From: Nitrososphaeraceae archaeon | GTDB lineage: Archaea; Thermoproteota; Nitrososphaeria; Nitrososphaerales; Nitrososphaeraceae | Direction of reading: 5' to 3' | Length of the DNA: 64,000 nucleotides | Assembly (NCBI GenBank): GCA_035250975.1 | Contig: DATFEP010000043.1 | Span: 1 to 64,000, forward strand | Shown here: piece after piece, positions 33,779-59,717 of the stretch | Numbering within the stretch: the first letter of the stretch is position 1 | Layout of the letters: each line of letters starts with the position of its first letter | Notes under the pieces: model-generated | The model's database searches: none | Told to the model about the DNA's origin: nothing | What the model saw: the letters and a program-made list of their open reading frames with translations, nothing else | Made by a program: the position numbers and the translations under genes

Positions 33779-33852
33779 GCCTCTGTAGCTCAGCCTGGTT
33801 GAGCGAAGGTTTCGTAAACCTTAGGTCGTGGGTTCAAATCCCACCAGAGGCT
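33779..33852 (+). tRNA. tRNA-Thr(CGT)
   Basis: GCCTCTG/CAGAGGC acceptor, AAGGT-TT-CGT-AA-ACCTT anticodon arm, GGTTCAAATCC. Confidence 0.96.
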
Positions 33853-33967
33853 CAGAATTCTGACTTCTGGTCCGCTTGTTTGGTTTGAGTCATAAATTGT
33901 TATAGAGCAATAATGAAGAAATAAACTTTTTGATATATTTGATTGCAAAATTGATTTATTATTCTTG

Positions 33968-35160: not shown

Positions 35161-36990
35161 CTATTTTTTTTCCAACAAAATATCAGATAGATTAAAACCT
35201 GTCCAAAGAATTTCGAATCCAAAATATTGGATCAGATCAATATGATAGGAATCAGGAATTTTATTCATTTGAAATATCTTTTGTGCTTCGACAAATTTCT
35301 TAATATCAGCGATCTGTTTTTTTATTTCGTCTAATTTAATATTTAATATAAAAAAAGTATTTATCAATGAATATTTTTCTTTTAGTAAACAAGCTGATGG
35401 ATTTGAAACAATATCGATTATTGATTCAAGTGACATACAGAATTTTTTAGATATTTCTTCAAGATTTATTATCTCAATGTTTTGTTTCATTAAATTATTT
35501 ATAAAATCACTGATTTCAGATTGGTATATAACTGTATTTTGTTTCTTTATTATCTTATCCATTAATTTTAGATAATTAATAATTGGTTTAATCGGTATAG
35601 AATTTCTTTTATAAATAATAAGCTTCTCTTTATCTATTACTCGGATAAAGGAATTTGAATAAATTTTTCTAGAGTCTTCATCATTTGAAACCAAATTATT
35701 TTCATTTATCGCAATTAAGAAATCATATTTTCCTTCTGACGATGACAGCAATTCATTAATCTTATTAAATTTTCGTTCTAGATAATTTGGAGTCCAATAA
35801 CCAACGATTTCAAAATATATTTTTTTGTCGTATTTCTCAAACATGAAATCCGCTATAAATGCTCTGCCTTTTGGTAAAACTAAGGGGTCCGGTTCTCTTA
35901 TTAGCTCCCAGCCTGTTCGCAATTGCTTAAAGTTTAGAGCAAATTTCTCTTCAACTTTACTATCAAAATCAGAAAATATATTAGAGAATTCAAAAGGAAA
36001 AGCAATATCCTTCTCTCTCAAATCCTGATGAAAATATTTTTTATCGGAAGAAAGTTCAAATTCATACATTTTTCGGTTTGATTGATTATTTTTTAGGATC
36101 CAAGCTTTAATGTTCCATTTAGAGGAATAAATTATTTCAGGAATTATTTTTGCGATTAATACTCCATATTTATTAGTCAACCTAAAAATGCTTAACGGAC
36201 CATCTATAGAACACAATATGTAATTATCTGCTTTATTTTGTACTATTTTATTACTATCTATAAAATCATTGTTAGAACTAGAGTCTAATATATCCGTAAA
36301 ATTATGTTTTTCTTTTTCTAAAGCTTGCTCAACAAGTTTTAAATTATACATTAATCCAAACCTTTTGATTTTTCTCAATACATACTTCCATTCTTTTCCT
36401 CCATGAATACTGAATTCAAAATTTACACAATTAAAAAATAATGTTTGTAAAAGAGAAAGATTATACAATTCTAATAATTTATCTGGAGATATTTTTTTAA
36501 AAGATTCCACAATAAGGTTATCTTCTCGATCAATCCATATGGCTTTTTCAAGATATTTATGTGAAATACCTAATCTGGATGCTGCTCTCTCCAATATTTT
36601 GCATCTTCGATCATAATCTAAAGCTAAGCCTTCTTTTGCGGATTCTTCAAATAATACTTTTCTCAACTTAAAAGAACTTTTTTGCGGTTGAGATAGAAGT
36701 CCTTGTCGGTTAATTGAATCCGGATTTTGAAAATTTTTATTTAAAGAAAAGATGGTTCTTCTCTCCAAAAGAACAATTAATCCTCGGATTAATTTGAAAT
36801 CTCGATATTCTGATTCAATTGATGATAAGTTTTTTTCTAGAATTGCTTTAGTATCTTTGTTATCATAGGATGTTTGAAATTCATTTATTAATTTTTGAGC
36901 GATAGCGATATCTTCAATCGAACAAAAAAGAGGCGTGATCTTCTTACCTTTATCGGTAATTTTTATTCTTAGTAATTCGGAAGGGAGCAT
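35161..36990 (-). CDS. DUF790 / Bax1-family endonuclease
   Basis: MLPSELLR, YNLSLLQTL, DGPLS, FDSKVEEKF, REP, DF..EIVGYWTPNYL. Confidence 0.88.
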   Translation of the reverse strand: MLPSELLRIKITDKGKKITPLFCSIEDIAIAQKLINEFQTSYDNKDTKAILEKNLSSIESEYRDFKLIRGLIVLLERRTIFSLNKNFQNPDSINRQGLLSQPQKSSFKLRKVLFEESAKEGLALDYDRRCKILERAASRLGISHKYLEKAIWIDREDNLIVESFKKISPDKLLELYNLSLLQTLFFNCVNFEFSIHGGKEWKYVLRKIKRFGLMYNLKLVEQALEKEKHNFTDILDSSSNNDFIDSNKIVQNKADNYILCSIDGPLSIFRLTNKYGVLIAKIIPEIIYSSKWNIKAWILKNNQSNRKMYEFELSSDKKYFHQDLREKDIAFPFEFSNIFSDFDSKVEEKFALNFKQLRTGWELIREPDPLVLPKGRAFIADFMFEKYDKKIYFEIVGYWTPNYLERKFNKINELLSSSEGKYDFLIAINENNLVSNDEDSRKIYSNSFIRVIDKEKLIIYKRNSIPIKPIINYLKLMDKIIKKQNTVIYQSEISDFINNLMKQNIEIINLEEISKKFCMSLESIIDIVSNPSACLLKEKYSLINTFFILNIKLDEIKKQIADIKKFVEAQKIFQMNKIPDSYHIDLIQYFGFEILWTGFNLSDILLEKK

Positions 36991-52324: not shown

Positions 52325-52840
52325 TTAAAAACTTGGTTCAATAGATTCGGTTATAGAGGTATCACGTTCCCATTCTTCATTTTGTAATTTAATAGACTCA
52401 ATTGCTATTGCGTTTGAATTAGCGTCCAATTCTGGTAATGCCTGATATTCCGAAATCCAACATCTATAAATTTTATATGCCATTATTAACTCACCTGCTT
52501 CGTTAAATAATTCTAAAATGACATCTTTCCTAAAATCTTTTAATGATGCATCGGTACCTGGGGTAGGATCAAAATGCCAAACCTTGCTTGCCCAATTCTC
52601 AAAATCAAGGTCATGAGTAACTCCTCTTTCTAAAATGATCGATTCATATGTAATCACTCCAGCAGATTTCCTACTAGTACTTGCATCCCCTCTTTCCCTA
52701 TGTTCTATTACTTCAGTAGTACGTTTTAAACCAGATATTTTATTTATTCCAGCAATGTATTTTCCATCCCATTTTACTTTAAATTTAAAGTTTTTATACG
52801 GATCGAATCTGGTTTGATTTACTGTATACTGGGATTCCAT
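52325..52840 (-). CDS. phage tail tube protein (T4 gp19 / eCIS Afp1-5-like)
   Basis: RFDPYKNFKF, ISGL, LERGVT, FRKD..LFNEAG..YRCW..ELDANSNAIAIE. Confidence 0.88.
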   Translation of the reverse strand: MESQYTVNQTRFDPYKNFKFKVKWDGKYIAGINKISGLKRTTEVIEHRERGDASTSRKSAGVITYESIILERGVTHDLDFENWASKVWHFDPTPGTDASLKDFRKDVILELFNEAGELIMAYKIYRCWISEYQALPELDANSNAIAIESIKLQNEEWERDTSITESIEPSF

Positions 52841-53100: not shown

Positions 53101-53514
53101 ATGTTAAAAGATATAGAAAACACCAATACCAAATTCTATGACGCATTTGAGAATCTATCAATCAAGTTGATGGATAGTGTATGGAAACATAGTGATGATT
53201 GTATCTGTATGCATCCTGGTTGGGAGATGTTCGTTGGTTGGTTAGCAATTCGTGAAAGTTGGATCACAATATTTGCCAGTACAGAGAATATTAAATTTAC
53301 AATTACTAATTTAAAAATCAGAACATATGATGAAGTAATCTCTGTTGTAACATGTTTAGAAAACATAGAAATGAGTTTAAATGCAAGGAAAATTAAATCT
53401 GGTGTAGTTGCAACGAATATATATGAATATGATAACAATCAGAAAAGATGGTTAATAATTCATCATCATGGATCACCAGTTTCAAATTACTTGGTACCGC
53501 CTAAAACAGAGTAG
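53101..53514 (+). CDS. SnoaL/NTF2-like domain protein
   Basis: FYDAFE, CMHPGW, IRESW, ATNIY, HHHGS. Confidence 0.85.
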   Translation: MLKDIENTNTKFYDAFENLSIKLMDSVWKHSDDCICMHPGWEMFVGWLAIRESWITIFASTENIKFTITNLKIRTYDEVISVVTCLENIEMSLNARKIKSGVVATNIYEYDNNQKRWLIIHHHGSPVSNYLVPPKTE

Positions 53515-53846
53515 AGAATTCTTTATAGTCTGGAATTGAGGTACAATTGGAGGATGTTGTTGTTTGAAATCAATAAATTGTTAACATTTTAGATAATTTG
53601 TTGGTCTATTAAAAATGGTTGATAACAGATATTAAATTATATTTTTAAATAAGTAATCATAAATAGAGCCATCTCTTTTTGTCATCGAATAACGGTCAAA
53701 ATGGCTTATATTTTATATGGTTAACTAATATACCTAAATTTTTAACATTTAGAGCGAAAGTTTGGATGATGGTCTAATGACATTCATAATGATATTCGGT
53801 AATTCTATCAGTAGGATTTGAACCCTTGGTCCGTCTTTCATTTCCT

Positions 53847-54125
53847 TTACGCCTCATAAAGTTTGTCTGTTACTTCATGGCAACCACTCAGGTCCACTTC
53901 AACAAATATGGTTTCATTTTTCTTTGCAGCCGCAATCCATTTCTTTAATTCCTGCTTCCAATCAATTTCCTTCTCGTCCACTCTCTGATCAAAAGCATCT
54001 ACAAATCTTGTATAAAATTCACCTACTTTCGTCATTGCCCTAAAATTCTCGTCTCCCTTTAGCCCAATAGCAAATTCATTTCTGTCTTTGTTTGTGTATA
54101 TACAAATTAGTGATTTCTGACTCAC
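53847..54125 (-). CDS. hypothetical protein
   Basis: 92-aa ORF with plausible composition. Confidence 0.55.
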   Translation of the reverse strand: MSQKSLICIYTNKDRNEFAIGLKGDENFRAMTKVGEFYTRFVDAFDQRVDEKEIDWKQELKKWIAAAKKNETIFVEVDLSGCHEVTDKLYEA

Positions 54126-54139
54126 AGCGTTATGATATT

Positions 54140-54180
54140 GTTATCATTATAGTTATCATTATAGTTATCATTATAGTTAT
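54140..54180. repeat. 12-bp tandem repeat x3.4
   Basis: GTTATCATTATA x3 plus GTTAT. Confidence 0.85.
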
Positions 54181-54470
54181 TTTTTTTCACTTTTCTGAAT
54201 CAATATACCGATTTTTAGAAATTTGTTAATACCTACACTGCTGCTGTCAACTATAATGCATCATTTAGATTTTCATTATTATAGATTGATTAGAACGATC
54301 ATATGACATAAAAACAATCCGCACATTGCACTAATAACAAATGATTTGCTAATTGATTGTATTCGTTCAGCTGTTTATTTAGGAGTCATATTCAGAATTA
54401 GATTCAATCTGTACTCTTACATTTACTATGTTTGATAAACAATGAAAAATATAGTTTATCCTTATGCTTT

Positions 54471-56645
54471 CTAAATTATGATTTTCACAATTGAATTATA
54501 AATATCTGTTAGCATTTCAGAATATCTATCTATATCATATCTAGTTTTATCATCTACAAGTTGTAATGGTATTGCTTTCCGTCTTGGATAATAAGTTATT
54601 ACATATTTTAGAAGTTGACCTGCTTTTGGAAATTCTTTGTTAGATGTTAGAATCTTTAATACATTGTTTTCAATGGTATTTCTATTTTCGTATTCATCAT
54701 AATTTTTAGATAATTGTTTTGTAAAAATTAAATCTTCTATTGATACTTTTCTTTCTCTAAGCAGCAATAAGTATTTTTTATAAAGAAAATGGATTTCTGA
54801 TAATTTTTGCCTGAGTTCTTTTCCATTATTAGCTCCTGCAAGAATCTCAAGAATATTTTGTTGAAAATTTGAAAAAAATAATGGCGTGTCGTGTCTTCTA
54901 GTTTCAATACCTCTCATTTTCAATGTTCCATCTTCAAAAACACCAAAGTATCTGTTTGTAACAGGAATGCGATTGTCTTGTTCAGAAGATAGAAAGGCGA
55001 TCCATTTATAGACACCTTCAAAGGATATTTCAAATCCAGTTCTTTCTTCAATACGGTTTTTTAATTTGATATAATCATTTTTTGTAGCATTTTCTTTTTT
55101 TATCCATATTGAATCTACAATTCCATGTAAAACTTCGAATCCTAATTCTTCTGCTATCTTTACTGACTCAAGAAGAATCTTTCTAGCAAAAGCACAGACT
55201 GCAATATGTGCATCGATTCTTCCAAATTTTGCATTACTAAATCCAAGGTAACCAAAAGACGTTACAAGAATCCATTTTAATGCAGATTGTCTTGCATTAT
55301 ATATTTTTTTTAGGTTATCATTAACAGTTGTCTTTTTCAATTGTTTATAATACAATCTTTTTTTGAGAACTAGTTCCAGTGATTTTGGGATCAATCCTTC
55401 CTTTCTTTTACAGATGTGATAGTTTAATTCAGGTATTTTGTTATCTGAATCCAAGTAACAACATTGACATAGAATTGTCTCCGCTGAAATATTCTTTTTG
55501 TATATTATATTTGGATATAAAGATACAAAATCAAATTCGGCTACTTTTTCATGTACTCCAATTTCTGGTTCCAGTATGAGACCTCCTCTATCTGCAATAA
55601 AAAGTTCTCTTAATGTTTTTGGATATTCTGACATTGTTGGTTTCCATGGTACAAGAATACCTTTTTTTGTTGCGTTATACAGATGAAAACTTGTTAAGCA
55701 TTTACCAATTGTTGCTCTTGAGGTCTCATGCAAGGGAAGTCTTGATAGTCTAGAAATCTCTACAAGTCCATGGACATCTTGGGTTTCTCTCCAAAGAAAA
55801 GAGGAACTAGTATCTATATGCCATCTACCATAAAATCTGATACTAGATGGTTTATAGTATGTTCTACCATATGAAAAATACGAGATACCGTTTCTCGTAG
55901 GTTTTTTTAGCGTGACATTAGAATCTCTACCAAGTACCAAATCTAGATTATTTTCTGATGCCCTATGAATTAGATAGGGAAAAAGAAATGAATCTCCATT
56001 CTCTGTTATAATTATATCAGGATCTAATTTTTTTACTATCTTGGATAACTGTATAATTATTTCATCTTCTGATTCACTTTGAATATTTATTTTTGGTTCT
56101 TTGTCACAAGTTGTAGTAATAGTAATATGTTTTAATTTGTCTGATAATTTTGGTATCCCTCCTTTTTGAAAGTTAATCTTTAAATAAATATTTCTAAAAT
56201 TTGGTACGATATAATTTGTCAAAGATACACAATCATTATCAAACACTTTCCAAAATAACCCATACGGGGACTCTTCGACATCAAAGGCACCACATGGAAA
56301 TAAATCATGTTCATAAAAATAATGCTGTACTGGTAAAAGATCTATATTGTATAATCGAAATCCTCCAGATACTTTTACTATTTTCCTTTCTATGATATTT
56401 GCAAGTTTTACATTACTTGCAATATATTGCGTGTATATCTTTAATACTTTGGATTTTTCATCGTCTGTTATTTTCTCATATCTATATACGTATTCAGTTT
56501 TTTTAATGAAATCTTCTCTTTCTCTAAGATTACATATTTGTTCTAAATTAGAGGTATTATTGGATGCTAAATAAAAATAGTTATTCCATTTGGTGTCTTC
56601 TATTTTTATCGTATTATTTTTGGAATCTTTAATCCAAAAAATCAT
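54471..56645 (-). CDS. polB2: family B DNA polymerase, PolB2/Dpo2 clade (exonuclease-deficient)
   Basis: motif A DFVSLYP intact, motif B ALKWILVTSFGYLG, motif C HGIVDS instead of YGDTDS, ExoII NGDSFLFPYL lacking the Asp. Confidence 0.88.
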   Translation of the reverse strand: MIFWIKDSKNNTIKIEDTKWNNYFYLASNNTSNLEQICNLREREDFIKKTEYVYRYEKITDDEKSKVLKIYTQYIASNVKLANIIERKIVKVSGGFRLYNIDLLPVQHYFYEHDLFPCGAFDVEESPYGLFWKVFDNDCVSLTNYIVPNFRNIYLKINFQKGGIPKLSDKLKHITITTTCDKEPKINIQSESEDEIIIQLSKIVKKLDPDIIITENGDSFLFPYLIHRASENNLDLVLGRDSNVTLKKPTRNGISYFSYGRTYYKPSSIRFYGRWHIDTSSSFLWRETQDVHGLVEISRLSRLPLHETSRATIGKCLTSFHLYNATKKGILVPWKPTMSEYPKTLRELFIADRGGLILEPEIGVHEKVAEFDFVSLYPNIIYKKNISAETILCQCCYLDSDNKIPELNYHICKRKEGLIPKSLELVLKKRLYYKQLKKTTVNDNLKKIYNARQSALKWILVTSFGYLGFSNAKFGRIDAHIAVCAFARKILLESVKIAEELGFEVLHGIVDSIWIKKENATKNDYIKLKNRIEERTGFEISFEGVYKWIAFLSSEQDNRIPVTNRYFGVFEDGTLKMRGIETRRHDTPLFFSNFQQNILEILAGANNGKELRQKLSEIHFLYKKYLLLLRERKVSIEDLIFTKQLSKNYDEYENRNTIENNVLKILTSNKEFPKAGQLLKYVITYYPRRKAIPLQLVDDKTRYDIDRYSEMLTDIYNSIVKIII

Positions 56646-56692
56646 TTTGTTATCTAAATGGTAAGCGTCAAAAATCCATCCAGTTGTTTTAA

Positions 56693-56947
56693 CTAAATTG
56701 TAGTCACTCCATCTAAAGTAGGAACAGTAGTAGATGTTGTTCGCTTGTATTGTTCAAATAAAAGCGTCATTAATAGAGATTCGGTTGAATAATCCCTTCC
56801 TTTTGCACTGATAGATTCTGAATATTGGTAACAATTTTTTAGCATCTGATCAAATAGTTCTCTGTCTTTTTTTCTCAGGCAGTCTGAATAACTTTTCCAT
56901 GAGTCTATCTCTTTTGTTAGTATATCTTCATATGGAAATAGATTCAT
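56693..56947 (-). CDS. small PolB2-associated helical protein, paralogue 2
   Basis: E..WKSY..LRKKDRELFDQM...LL..LFEQYK, same pattern as upstream gene; ATGA overlap. Confidence 0.75.
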   Translation of the reverse strand: MNLFPYEDILTKEIDSWKSYSDCLRKKDRELFDQMLKNCYQYSESISAKGRDYSTESLLMTLLFEQYKRTTSTTVPTLDGVTTI

Positions 56948-57189
56948 CTTGATATCACATTCGTCTTTTTTTTTAAAGACTTGTATTGATTAAAAATAAT
57001 AGATAATAAAATAGGATATATTCTAATGGGATTGCTACAATAAGAACAAGCAGAATTGTATAACCTGGCAATTGAAAACATTTCTCTAAATAATTTTCTC
57101 TTTTCTAGATTCAGATATTTTTGATATGATTTCCATTCTTTTTGTTCGAGATCAATTGCTATTCTAAATGAGGGAATAGTTCTACCCAT
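56944..57189 (-). CDS. small PolB2-associated helical protein (arCOG07300-like), paralogue 1
   Basis: MGRTIPSFR..E..EWKSY..L...RKLF..MF..AR...LLSIIF.QYK. Confidence 0.8.
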   Translation of the reverse strand: MGRTIPSFRIAIDLEQKEWKSYQKYLNLEKRKLFREMFSIARLYNSACSYCSNPIRIYPILLSIIFNQYKSLKKKTNVISR

Positions 57190-57195
57190 TTATAT

Positions 57196-57783
57196 TCACG
57201 TTCTATCTCTTTTTTGTGGTTTTTTATGATTCTTGAAATCTGGTAGAGTGATAGAAGAGAAAACGGTTACAATAGAATTGTTAATATTATTTAGTGATTT
57301 TGTAATCTGTTTAACAATCCAATCTTTCTCTTCTTGTTCTATTTGTTGTTTGACCGAATTCAAGAGAAATAGATCAGAAATAATAACTAATAATTTTGAT
57401 TGGGATTTTTCCATTAATTCAAAAAGTTCATGAATTAATGTCTCTGCTAATTGATAAATGGTAAACACTCTGGTAATTATTACATGGTCTAAAACCTTGT
57501 TGACATCCATCCCATACTTTTTCTTTGCGAGATTTACACATTGATAAAAATCAAATCTATTGTTACTTGTAATAACAAGTACATTTGAAGATTCTAGACC
57601 ACCATATCTTTTTGGAAGTAATCCTTTAACAATTATATCACTAACTAATTCATCACAATCTACAAAGGAAATCTTGTCACCATATCTTAACTTAATAGAT
57701 TCGTTATTGTTTATATGGAAAGTCAGTATATTCAAATATTCATAGGCAATTAACGGTTTTGTATAGTGTAACACCGTTTCCAT
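57196..57783 (-). CDS. inactivated RadA/RecA-fold protein
   Basis: GGLES, NRFDFY, VLDHVIITRVFTIYQL, LLVIISD; no Walker A. Confidence 0.78.
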   Translation of the reverse strand: METVLHYTKPLIAYEYLNILTFHINNNESIKLRYGDKISFVDCDELVSDIIVKGLLPKRYGGLESSNVLVITSNNRFDFYQCVNLAKKKYGMDVNKVLDHVIITRVFTIYQLAETLIHELFELMEKSQSKLLVIISDLFLLNSVKQQIEQEEKDWIVKQITKSLNNINNSIVTVFSSITLPDFKNHKKPQKRDRT

Positions 57784-57799
57784 ACCGTACTTTACGGTA
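57783..57799. promoter_or_regulatory. palindromic operator candidate
   Basis: TACCGTA-CTT-TACGGTA between minus-strand TATA (TTTTATAA, 57813-57806) and the start codon. Confidence 0.6.
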
Positions 57800-57926
57800 A
57801 AGAAATTATAAAAGTATTACTATATGAAGTTGTGTATAAGATACCAGAAATCTTTACATCAAGTCAAATATTATTGATATACTACAATTATTATTTAGTA
57901 AATCAATCCATTGTAGTTACCAATCT

Positions 57927-58817
57927 ATGAACGAAACAGAACTTAAGCAATTATTCAAAAGTTCAATTAAAAACAGACATATTCAAAATAATCATCATCT
58001 TCCTATCCATATTTCAGATTATCAATCTCATCAAATAAAGATAAAGGAGGAAGCATACTTTGGCATTTTTGACTTTGTAATTGTAATTGTTCATAAAAAT
58101 AATGAGAAACAAGGAGATATAAACAATACCTATATTGGTACCGCCAGAAAGGACCTTTTCTTTCAAGACGAAGGACGTGATGATGATTATGATGTTTATC
58201 AGAACATTCGTATGCGAACTCACCAGTTTATTCAAATAGCTAAACAAGAAAAATGCAATGTAAAAAATTTAACGTTTATTCCAGTAGAGGTAAAATCAGA
58301 TAGCGATGTACTTGACAAACGTCTTCCTAATCAAATATTAAATGCTATCTTAACCTTTGGTCGGTCATTTTTAGTACTTGATGAGAAACATATTTCCAAG
58401 AACCTTCATCTGTTAAAACTTCTTCCAACAACAATTATAGGATATACAGGTAAAGACGATTATTTTGAAGTACTGTCTGTATTCGATAGATTCGTAATGA
58501 ACGGAATATTTAGTATTCCGAAGAGAAGTTTTAACAAGTTACTACTTGATAGTAAGGTAACAAAACAATTTAGTGACATAGATAAGATATATAAAACTCT
58601 GGTTACATTGGAAAGGATAAACCAGAAACTGGTGTTTAACTATCTATTTAGATTTGGAACTAATCTTTTGGATGAGAATTTTTTGTTACAGGAAGAGATA
58701 CAATTTCTAAATAAATTTTGTGAACTTTTTAAAATACCCACAGAAAATTCATACAAAAAAGAGATTATCAGATTAATTAAAAATAGTGAAAATCATTTGA
58801 TTACTGATTTTCTATAA
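57927..58817 (+). CDS. PD-(D/E)XK nuclease-like protein (sce7726/MmcB-like motif)
   Basis: E..FGIFD...VEVKSDSDVLDKRLPNQ...TFGRSFLVL. Confidence 0.65.
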   Translation: MNETELKQLFKSSIKNRHIQNNHHLPIHISDYQSHQIKIKEEAYFGIFDFVIVIVHKNNEKQGDINNTYIGTARKDLFFQDEGRDDDYDVYQNIRMRTHQFIQIAKQEKCNVKNLTFIPVEVKSDSDVLDKRLPNQILNAILTFGRSFLVLDEKHISKNLHLLKLLPTTIIGYTGKDDYFEVLSVFDRFVMNGIFSIPKRSFNKLLLDSKVTKQFSDIDKIYKTLVTLERINQKLVFNYLFRFGTNLLDENFLLQEEIQFLNKFCELFKIPTENSYKKEIIRLIKNSENHLITDFL

Positions 58818-59285
58818 TTATTACGATAGTCCGAAATATTAATTTTATAAAATAACTATAATATTTTGTAGTGGGTTGTTGGCTAAATTCAAAATCTAAA
58901 GATAAAATTGAGTATTAAATATTAAAAATCACCAGAAATATTTTTGATTAATTTGCTGTAGTTATTAAATCATTTAGATCAATAGAGAGATGAAGGTTCC
59001 TATTATAAATAAAAATAAACTACATTGTTGAAGTGTGACATACCGTCGATGCTGTAAAAAGACAATTGCGGAACGAAGAAAATGAATTATTCATTTTCTA
59101 CCCCTTTCTACTCGGGTATAATCAAAAACAACATTTAGTCTAGATTTAATAAATTGAAGATTAAACTTTGATCAATAGAAAAATAGTCAGATAAACCAAT
59201 TTCCACCTAAGATTACAACGTATATATACTAATTAAAGAGATATACTGAAACTATTATAAGAAATGCTATGTATAACAAACTACA

Positions 59286-59717
59286 ATGAATTTTTCTAAT
59301 GATAATGAGAATATAGATTTTGCTGCAATACTTACTGGAAGAGAAGAAGTGCCAGTAGTAGATACTTTAGATACTGCTTTAGCAACATTCCAATCCAAAG
59401 ATAATGAAGATCTAAAATTTTGCGTTAAAATTACAGATATGAGTAAAATAAAACAAGTTAGTATTGACGTAGGTAAACATGAGAAAGGAGAAACAGTTGC
59501 AGAGCTATATAAGTCTGAAACTCCATCAGACGAGGTTACCGGCAAATTATGTGAAGGGGATATAAATTCACAGGATCTGAAAGGGCCGTTACAAGGAAAG
59601 AATACCGAAGAATTGGTCAAAAAAATAGAAAACGGAGAAGCATATGTAAATATATTGACAGAGGATAAACCGAAGGGAAAAGTAAGAGGACAAATTAAAA
59701 AGTTAGATCATATTTGA
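59286..59717 (+). CDS. CHRD domain protein
   Basis: LTGREEVPVV...G.AYVNILT...GKVRGQI. Confidence 0.85.
   Translation: MNFSNDNENIDFAAILTGREEVPVVDTLDTALATFQSKDNEDLKFCVKITDMSKIKQVSIDVGKHEKGETVAELYKSETPSDEVTGKLCEGDINSQDLKGPLQGKNTEELVKKIENGEAYVNILTEDKPKGKVRGQIKKLDHI

Follow-up and report, generated by a model that had tools for sequence, protein, structure and literature searches.

What does the compact gene cluster near one end of this 64,000-nucleotide stretch of Nitrososphaeraceae DNA encode, a new inducible system or one that is already known? The stretch, referred to here as the window, is C51:1-64000 of a 2.49-Mb genome in 91 contigs. It is AT-rich (GC content 0.25-0.37 per 2 kb), and the closest relatives in the species collection are Nitrososphaerales/Nitrososphaeraceae metagenome-assembled genomes with PolB identities of 96, 95, 72 and 72%. 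An earlier note on this DNA had proposed a five-gene inducible system for damage tolerance and mutagenesis, in which a divergently transcribed nuclease accompanies an inactive RadA (iRadA), two small paralogous proteins and a family B DNA polymerase (PolB2). Our analysis indicates that the window very probably carries the standard, published type-2 PolB2 mutasome operon, iRadA-PPB2a-PPB2b-PolB2. Its four genes are:

57196..57783, minus strand: iRadA, open reading frame (ORF) of 195 amino acids (aa), Pfam Rad51
56944..57189, minus strand: PPB2a (arCOG07300), ORF of 81 aa with an MGRT arm (MGRTIPSFR)
56693..56947, minus strand: PPB2b, ORF of 84 aa that starts MNLFPYEDIL and has no MGRT arm
54471..56645, minus strand: PolB2, 724 aa when counted from the first ATG; upstream of it, conservation of the frame extends to at least 56681 (GWIFDAYHLDNK), and the frame stays open as far as about 56753

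The earlier note correctly recognized a mutasome-like module of PolB2, iRadA and small subunits, as the four genes, their order and their protein families are all present. The operon is also as tightly packed as it described, with a 6-nt gap between iRadA and PPB2a, an ATGA overlap between PPB2a and PPB2b, and a 47-nt gap between PPB2b and PolB2. A divergent intergenic region of 143 nt (24% GC) separates iRadA from the neighboring gene.

An operon of PolB2, arCOG07300 and inactive RadA was described by Makarova et al. in 2014 (PMC4104785). Timinskas, Timinskas and Venclovas (2025) named the small protein PPB2 and modeled a heteropentamer composed of PolB2, iRadA and a PPB2 trimer (PMC11791011). 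According to that paper, the MGRT arm is found on one PPB2 copy only in all duplicated operons, and the best modeled complexes contain a single arm-bearing copy. The names PPB2a and PPB2b are used in its Supplementary Figure S10, and its supplementary table holds an operon group '2 (iRadA-PPB2-PPB2-PolB2)', a term that occurs 58 times, with Nitrososphaeraceae rows carrying HGIVDS (IVD). The window has the same core as this group: the gene order, an iRadA without ATPase motifs, an MGRT arm on the first PPB2 only, IVD/HGIVDS and a dead exonuclease. Because the window fits the published description point by point, the duplicated small subunit, which had been put forward as undescribed, is not new; the operon type, the duplicated PPB2 with one MGRT arm and the occurrence in Nitrososphaeraceae are all in print already. 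With the system in print the locus has little discovery value, and the worth of checking it is mostly negative, in removing the nuclease, an operator and a tRNA island from the proposal.

Identification of the polymerase relies on domain matches, pairwise identity and motifs. PolB2 matches Pfam DNA_pol_B (6.4e-36) and an exonuclease domain (7.4e-9), and its best solved relative is 5mdn_A (2.8e-46, labeled 'DNA polymerase'), which we take to be a PolB3. The one other family B gene of the genome encodes PolB1 (931 aa, contig C1), with which the window's PolB2 shares only 29% identity, across residues 292-658. Its identity to the PolB2 of locus L048 is 50% and spans the full length (residues 1-721); the N-terminal 27 residues of the L048 protein are the same as those of a Nitrososphaera PolB2 row in the published table (PMC11791011). 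Judged by pairwise identity and motifs, the polymerase appears to group with recognized PolB2 and not with the replicative PolB1. A match of PolB2 to the 1671-position PADLOC model 'HEase' was read as the polymerase part of that model and set aside.

We aligned the window's PolB2 with 23 Nitrososphaeraceae orthologues and the genome's PolB1. The exonuclease (Exo) I motif DIE of PolB1 is replaced by KIN, Exo II reads NGDSFL where PolB1 has NGDDFD, and a deletion has removed the Exo III region. Motif A is kept (DFVSLYP), and motif C reads HGIVDS (residues 507-512) compared to YGDTDS in PolB1. The first aspartate of DxD is replaced by isoleucine or methionine, giving (I/M)VD, in each of the 11 PolB2 sequences inspected among the 24 aligned. 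These changes bear out the description of a proofreading-deficient PolB with an HGIVDS motif C. The window protein also carries ILVPWKPTMSEYPKTLRELFIAD352R353GG, and all 24 PolB2 orthologues contain the PWKP...AD(R/K)GG segment, which neither of two PolB1 sequences has. From its spacing and conservation, D352-R353 probably corresponds to the published D(K/R) motif that follows the iRadA-binding loop.

The second component was described as a RadA-like protein lacking Walker A, and our results agree. iRadA matches Pfam Rad51 at 2.6e-6 (27.3 bits against a cut-off of 22), its NCBIfam matches to RadA and Dmc1 are weak, and its best solved-structure match is RadA (E 0.013). A GxxxxGK[ST] motif is missing, and at the position where both RadA proteins of the genome carry their P-loop, GEFGSGKS/T, the alignment has a gap in iRadA and six orthologues. 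The N-terminal helix-hairpin-helix (HhH) domain is also missing, leaving a protein of 195 aa compared to 358 aa for RadA.

The two small proteins (81 and 84 aa) are paralogous, as the earlier note had stated of a pair of helical proteins of about 80 aa: they are 30% identical by BLASTP (E 7e-8), and profile comparison with hhalign gives 97.3% (E 2.3e-11). In an alignment of 17 a-type sequences, every protein has G2, R3 and P6, and conservation of T4 and R9 is 90% or higher; an alignment of b-type sequences showed that PPB2b has its own conserved N terminus. Across the family, the a and b types form separate clades with 100/100 support. The AlphaFold2 (AF2) model of PPB2a (predicted local distance difference test, pLDDT, 78.1) consists of an arm (residues 1-6) followed by three helices (7-23, 28-51 and 54-80). 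A PPB2 profile found nothing meaningful among PDB sequences, and PADLOC assigned no defense family to PPB2a, PPB2b, the nuclease or their neighbors.

PPB2-like genes of both types are also amplified as solitary copies in many Nitrososphaeraceae genomes (L072-L088, L091). The PPB2 profile has matches in 90 of 101 genomes, with up to 18 in one genome, match counts per genome not being equivalent to copy numbers. (The genome tallies given here for the nuclease, PolB2 and PPB2 include the unpublished genomes G365, G436 and G447.) Eighteen of the 20 extra PPB2 loci that were fetched have no PolB2 or iRadA in flanks of up to 5 kb, most of them being solitary, and the PPB2 copies of one genome cluster together in the tree. 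The window's genome itself has a second, degenerate PPB2 pair at the start of a contig (C42:602-1063). No mention of solitary PPB2 amplification was found in the examined parts of PMC11791011 and PMC4104785, and these amplified genes of both types could interest specialists. In one close relative (L003:5456-5953), one 165-aa ORF spans both PPB2a and PPB2b, and is either a fusion of the paralogues or an assembly indel. Locus L048 carries an a-type and a b-type PPB2 ORF (L048:5422-5956), and the published row with the matching PolB2 N terminus lists one PPB2 (group 1a; PMC11791011). Therefore, PPB2 duplications may be under-counted where small ORFs are unannotated.

We surveyed 24 Nitrososphaeraceae PolB2 loci, the window included. 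iRadA and both PPB2 types adjoin PolB2 at 11 of these, again counting the window; one PPB2 type adjoins it at four, and none lies within the fetched flanks at the remaining nine. A split mutasome locus was seen in one genus, where G308 (L089) and G272 (L090) carry an iRadA-PPB2a-PPB2b set on the PolB2 contig, at a distance of about 20 kb from PolB2. All five genes of the window's locus, the neighboring nuclease gene included, are under purifying selection: dN/dS (the ratio of non-synonymous to synonymous substitution rates) relative to the two close relatives is 0.14-0.19 for PolB2, 0.09 for PPB2b, 0.36 for PPB2a, 0.42-0.56 for iRadA and 0.24 for the nuclease. Metatranscriptome contigs of 151-303 nt from two runs of one study match the locus at 95-99% identity; they lie on PolB2, iRadA and the nuclease and at 56666-56816 (the end of PPB2b and the frame upstream of PolB2) and 57065-57366 (PPB2a into iRadA); these contigs give no strand, ends or level, may reflect DNA carry-over and leave parts of the locus uncovered.

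The function of the operon may be sketched from the literature on its relatives. PolB2 would be the catalytic subunit of a translesion or mismatch-extender polymerase. The loop before its D(K/R) motif (D352-R353) would mimic the RadA oligomerization motif and thereby bind iRadA. The PPB2 trimer would most likely consist of one PPB2a and two PPB2b, with the MGRT arm of PPB2a reaching into the PolB2-iRadA cleft close to the DNA. Expression would be expected to rise after DNA damage, as it does for Sulfolobus Dpo2.

The Dpo2 system of Sulfolobus islandicus and S. solfataricus consists of the same three protein families and likewise has an inactive exonuclease (PMC4104785, PMC7390963, PMC8764526). 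Dpo2 is induced by DNA damage and accounts for targeted mutagenesis (Feng et al. 2020, PMC7390963), acts as an exonuclease-free extender polymerase (Feng et al. 2022, PMC8764526), and its induction depends on Orc1-2 and the ANTTTC box (PMC6061795). In both systems the first aspartate of DxD has become isoleucine, giving IID in S. islandicus (PMC11791011) and IVD in the window. However, Sulfolobus has one PPB2 where the window has two, and damage induction and extender activity were established there by experiment, whereas the window's operon is known from its genes. The bacterial ImuA-ImuB-DnaE2 cassette follows an analogous logic. So does the E. coli Pol V mutasome (UmuD'2C-RecA), which likewise joins an error-tolerant polymerase to a RecA-family partner and a small armed subunit, a parallel drawn in PMC11791011. 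Unlike in these two systems, the polymerase here belongs to family B rather than to Y or C, the RecA-family partner is inactive, neither the small subunits nor the stoichiometry are the same, and the subunits are non-homologous except for the RecA fold.

Several features of the window weigh against its being a standard mutasome operon of this type. The top NCBIfam model for PolB2, NF004416, scores 399 bits, under its 516-bit cut-off. iRadA is short, and its C terminus, ...FSSITLPDFKNHKK, ends in a SITLPDF that is only weakly like a PCNA-interacting peptide (PIP), with Q1 and the second aromatic missing; an x-x-x-(L/I/M)-x-x-F pattern is found at the C terminus of seven of nine same-genus sequences. 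The published enriched neighbors of PolB2 loci are orc1/cdc6, lexA, SRAP and DUF72 (PMC11791011). Unlike many published loci, the window has no orc1/cdc6 near the operon as far as Pfam scans of its proteins show, and the genome's DUF72 genes, of which there are at least three intact copies, do not adjoin it. PolB2 lacks a canonical in-frame start ahead of its conserved N-terminal GWIFDAY. The short iRadA, the missing start, the absence of adjacent DUF72 and orc1/cdc6 and the divergent PD-(D/E)XK gene are also the local differences between the window and published group 2 (PMC11791011). Finally, the Nitrososphaeraceae PolB2, like the system as a whole in this family, is known from sequence alone.

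This last point also leaves some room for a complex with a role other than translesion synthesis, such as alternative replication initiation or origin regulation, which Makarova et al. (2014) speculated upon from linkage to arORC2 (PMC4104785). Solitary PPB2 genes and iRadA-PPB2 sets lacking PolB2 in the family likewise hint at roles beyond one polymerase. However, genetics and biochemistry in Sulfolobus place PolB2 in damage tolerance and mismatch extension (PMC7390963, PMC8764526), and the orc1/cdc6 gene that such a role would call to mind was not seen beside the window's operon. We consider a non-translesion role highly improbable.

The start of PolB2 requires closer attention. The frame 5' of its first ATG encodes the segment GW(I/L)FD.Y, which is conserved in all 24 orthologues and is part of PolB2 in other genera and in the published protein sequences (PMC11791011). 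An ATG, GTG or TTG in frame before this segment is absent in eight of the ten loci of the window's genus (the window, L003, L004 and L037-L041). Compared to L006, the window has a 1-nt deletion that shifts L006's GTG start into the PPB2b frame. PolB2 might therefore be decaying in this lineage, the deletion having removed its in-frame GTG and left a protein that is N-terminally truncated or poorly made. The lack of any in-frame ATG, GTG or TTG upstream of GWIFDAY in the window, L003 and L004, and the position of the homologous GTG in the PPB2b frame of the window, are what decay would predict. However, the 724-codon frame is intact, and the PolB2 dN/dS of 0.14-0.19 was measured relative to L003 and L004, which have the same start configuration. 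A canonical start is missing from most loci of the genus, not from the window alone. In addition, the 12 upstream codons differ from those of L006/L037 by four synonymous changes and one non-synonymous change, which suggests that they are still translated. Decay thus appears extremely unlikely.

We take PolB2 to be an intact member of the type-2 operon, the start of which in the window's genus could be a non-canonical codon, reinitiation after PPB2b, or a form of recoding. Two codons ahead of GW, ATA or ATT is found at some loci and ACA in the window. Models with a -1 or +1 frameshift were tried and rejected, as the frames and sequences differ among loci and share no common slippery heptamer. 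PolB2 genes that are under purifying selection without a canonical start before their conserved N-terminal segment, as seen in this one Nitrososphaeraceae genus, could interest specialists.

We also examined the gene that diverges from the operon:

57927..58817, plus strand: PD-(D/E)XK-fold neighbor gene, 296 aa, divergent and outside the conserved system

The earlier note made this nuclease the fifth part of the system, co-regulated with the operon through an operator in the 143-bp region and processing lesions or flaps. The divergent layout and the shared 143-nt region are indeed kept in the two closest relatives, and both the nuclease fold and its catalytic-type residues are conserved. However, the nuclease does not follow the operon across the family. 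Among the 42 genomes that have both a nuclease and a PolB2 orthologue (a set that includes the unpublished G365), the two adjoin in three, namely the window's genome and two relatives with a PolB2 identity of at least 95%; in the remaining 39 the genes are either on separate contigs or separated by at least 48 kb. Distances on a shared contig are 867 kb (G184), 567 kb (G159), 375 kb (G197), 330 kb (G171) and 48 kb (G122), the first four of these being complete or large assemblies. Similarly, no nuclease lies within 3-6 kb of any of the 21 PolB2 loci outside the close lineage.

Reading from the nuclease side gave the same result. Of 50 nuclease loci read directly (30 with 1.5-kb and 20 with 4-kb flanks), three have the full operon, one has a 53-aa PPB2a-like ORF (G309) and one has a 257-aa iRadA (G378), and the fetched flanks of the other 45 contain no mutasome-type gene. 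The G309 and G378 adjacencies, which are in another genus and speak for a link, exceed our chance expectation, but with so few cases of limited independence we draw no conclusion from them. In two genera the nuclease gene instead stands beside trpA/trpB (L062, L066, L092-L094, L098, L101-L111), and the published enrichment names orc1/cdc6, lexA, SRAP and DUF72, the string 'nuclease' having no occurrence at the start of a word in the text and supplements of PMC11791011. The co-conservation of nuclease and operon that the proposal called for is therefore not observed: the divergent PD-(D/E)XK gene is family-wide and adjoins the operon only in this lineage. As a separate observation, the trpA/trpB sites have either the replicative PolB1 at about 3.4 kb from the nuclease or the true RadA at about 2.5 kb, and the family is often found near DNA-metabolism genes.

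The intergenic region was examined for an operator and for a promoter. The following elements were considered:

57802..57814, minus strand: candidate TATA box CTTTTATAATTTC, -31 to -19 from the iRadA ATG; kept in the window, L003, L004, L006 and L037
57783..57799, no strand assigned: palindrome TACCGTA-aag-TACGGTA (I1), overlapping the iRadA start codon
57881..57917, no strand assigned: 8-nt inverted repeat ACTACAAT..ATTGTAGT (I4), flanking an A/T-rich stretch upstream of the nuclease gene

The element CTTTTATAATTTC is conserved down to the relatives with 72% identity and is a candidate TATA box for the operon; its position would imply a leaderless or near-leaderless mRNA. The left arm of I1 has been lost in L006 and L037. 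In I4, both arms are changed in L003 with pairing kept (ACTATAAT/ATTATAGT), a pattern that would favor a shared operator, and L004 has one mismatch; with three sequences only, we treat conservation of this repeat as a lead rather than a finding. Of 1000 shuffled sequences, 20.6% and 22.3% contained one or more perfect inverted repeats of the kinds seen here. Therefore the repeats are within chance, and the proposed operator loses its support. The ANTTTC box occurs once, at -24 to -19 of the operon strand and thus within the TATA region. About 0.6 matches are expected by chance in 143 bp on both strands; it was rejected as a damage box because a single match is what chance predicts. A scan for sigma-70-type promoters returned 40 sites compared to 36.5 expected and is uninformative for an archaeon.

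The earlier note had also placed the operon inside a tRNA-linked island. However, the sole tRNA in the window is a tRNA-Thr at 33779-33853, 20.6 kb from the operon, and no integrase or other mobile-element family was found among 26 surrounding proteins scanned with Pfam (23 encoded at 27.7-51.8 kb and three at 60.9-63.6 kb). With the nuclease linkage, the operator and the tRNA link all unsupported and the duplication already published, the five-gene inducible system is not supported, and we judge it improbable. A narrower proposal is that the nuclease was recruited to the mutasome in this lineage alone, under a shared bidirectional control region, and would process lesions or flaps for PolB2, its homologues recurring beside iRadA or PPB2 in two genomes of another genus; separately, the PolB2 of the window's genus would be made by non-canonical initiation or recoding coupled to PPB2b termination. 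We regard this combined proposal as unlikely and retain the four-gene type-2 operon as our reading of the locus.

What the neighboring protein is can be stated at the level of fold and motifs. Its 296 aa appear to comprise a PD-(D/E)XK-fold domain at about residues 1-190, with a variable insert at about 57-97, and a helical C-terminal part. In its fold the domain matches those of the restriction-endonuclease-like type and has their alpha-beta-beta-beta-alpha-beta core, and 16 aligned homologues keep E42, D49, P119, E121, K123, D127, D130, R132, N135 and Q136. The earlier assignment to PD-(D/E)XK nucleases is thus supported by the predicted fold and by conservation of the putative catalytic residues E42, D49, E121 and K123. 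The AF2 model is only fair (pLDDT 58); Foldseek found nothing at E<=0.001 when it was compared with the PDB, and the family profile gave only a chance match (E 0.39) among PDB sequences. The protein belongs to no Pfam family. A local match to sce7726 (NCBIfam NF033832) covers residues 115-173 (E 3.3e-5) and scores 23.9 bits, below the cut-off of 70, and a protein atlas gives the same lead (sce7726/Pfam PF26915 Phage_P4_cII). The likeness to this family is weak and spans the ExK strand and the next helix, whereas the window protein adds the insert and the helical C-terminal half. In a sample of 401 genomes from the class, 60 of the 78 other members of the window's family have the gene and none of the 322 genomes from other families does, so that it is Nitrososphaeraceae-restricted in that sample. 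Its best 120 database relatives are unnamed or 'hypothetical', and every source name that bears an organism is Nitrososphaeraceae.

Synteny with the close relatives persists on the nuclease side, where a CHRD protein, a 130-aa ORF and an HtrA-like protease follow. On the other side, past a 92-aa ORF downstream of PolB2, the gene content of the relatives diverges among themselves. Rfam gave no match at E<=1 in 53500-59500. The surrounding Pfam families include RtcB, ribosomal protein S11, DUF790, CorA, an amino-acid permease, UbiD, a methyltransferase, SDR, a trypsin-like protease and thioredoxin. A T4 gp19-like tail-tube or contractile-injection-system inner-tube protein is encoded at 52325-52840 on the minus strand (Pfam 1.7e-41), between SnoaL-like and SDR genes; no other injection-system genes were seen among the ORFs scanned. 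Finally, the DUF790 protein (609 aa, 35161-36990, minus strand, 3.1e-88) is Bax1-like, DUF790 being the family of the XPB-associated nuclease Bax1.

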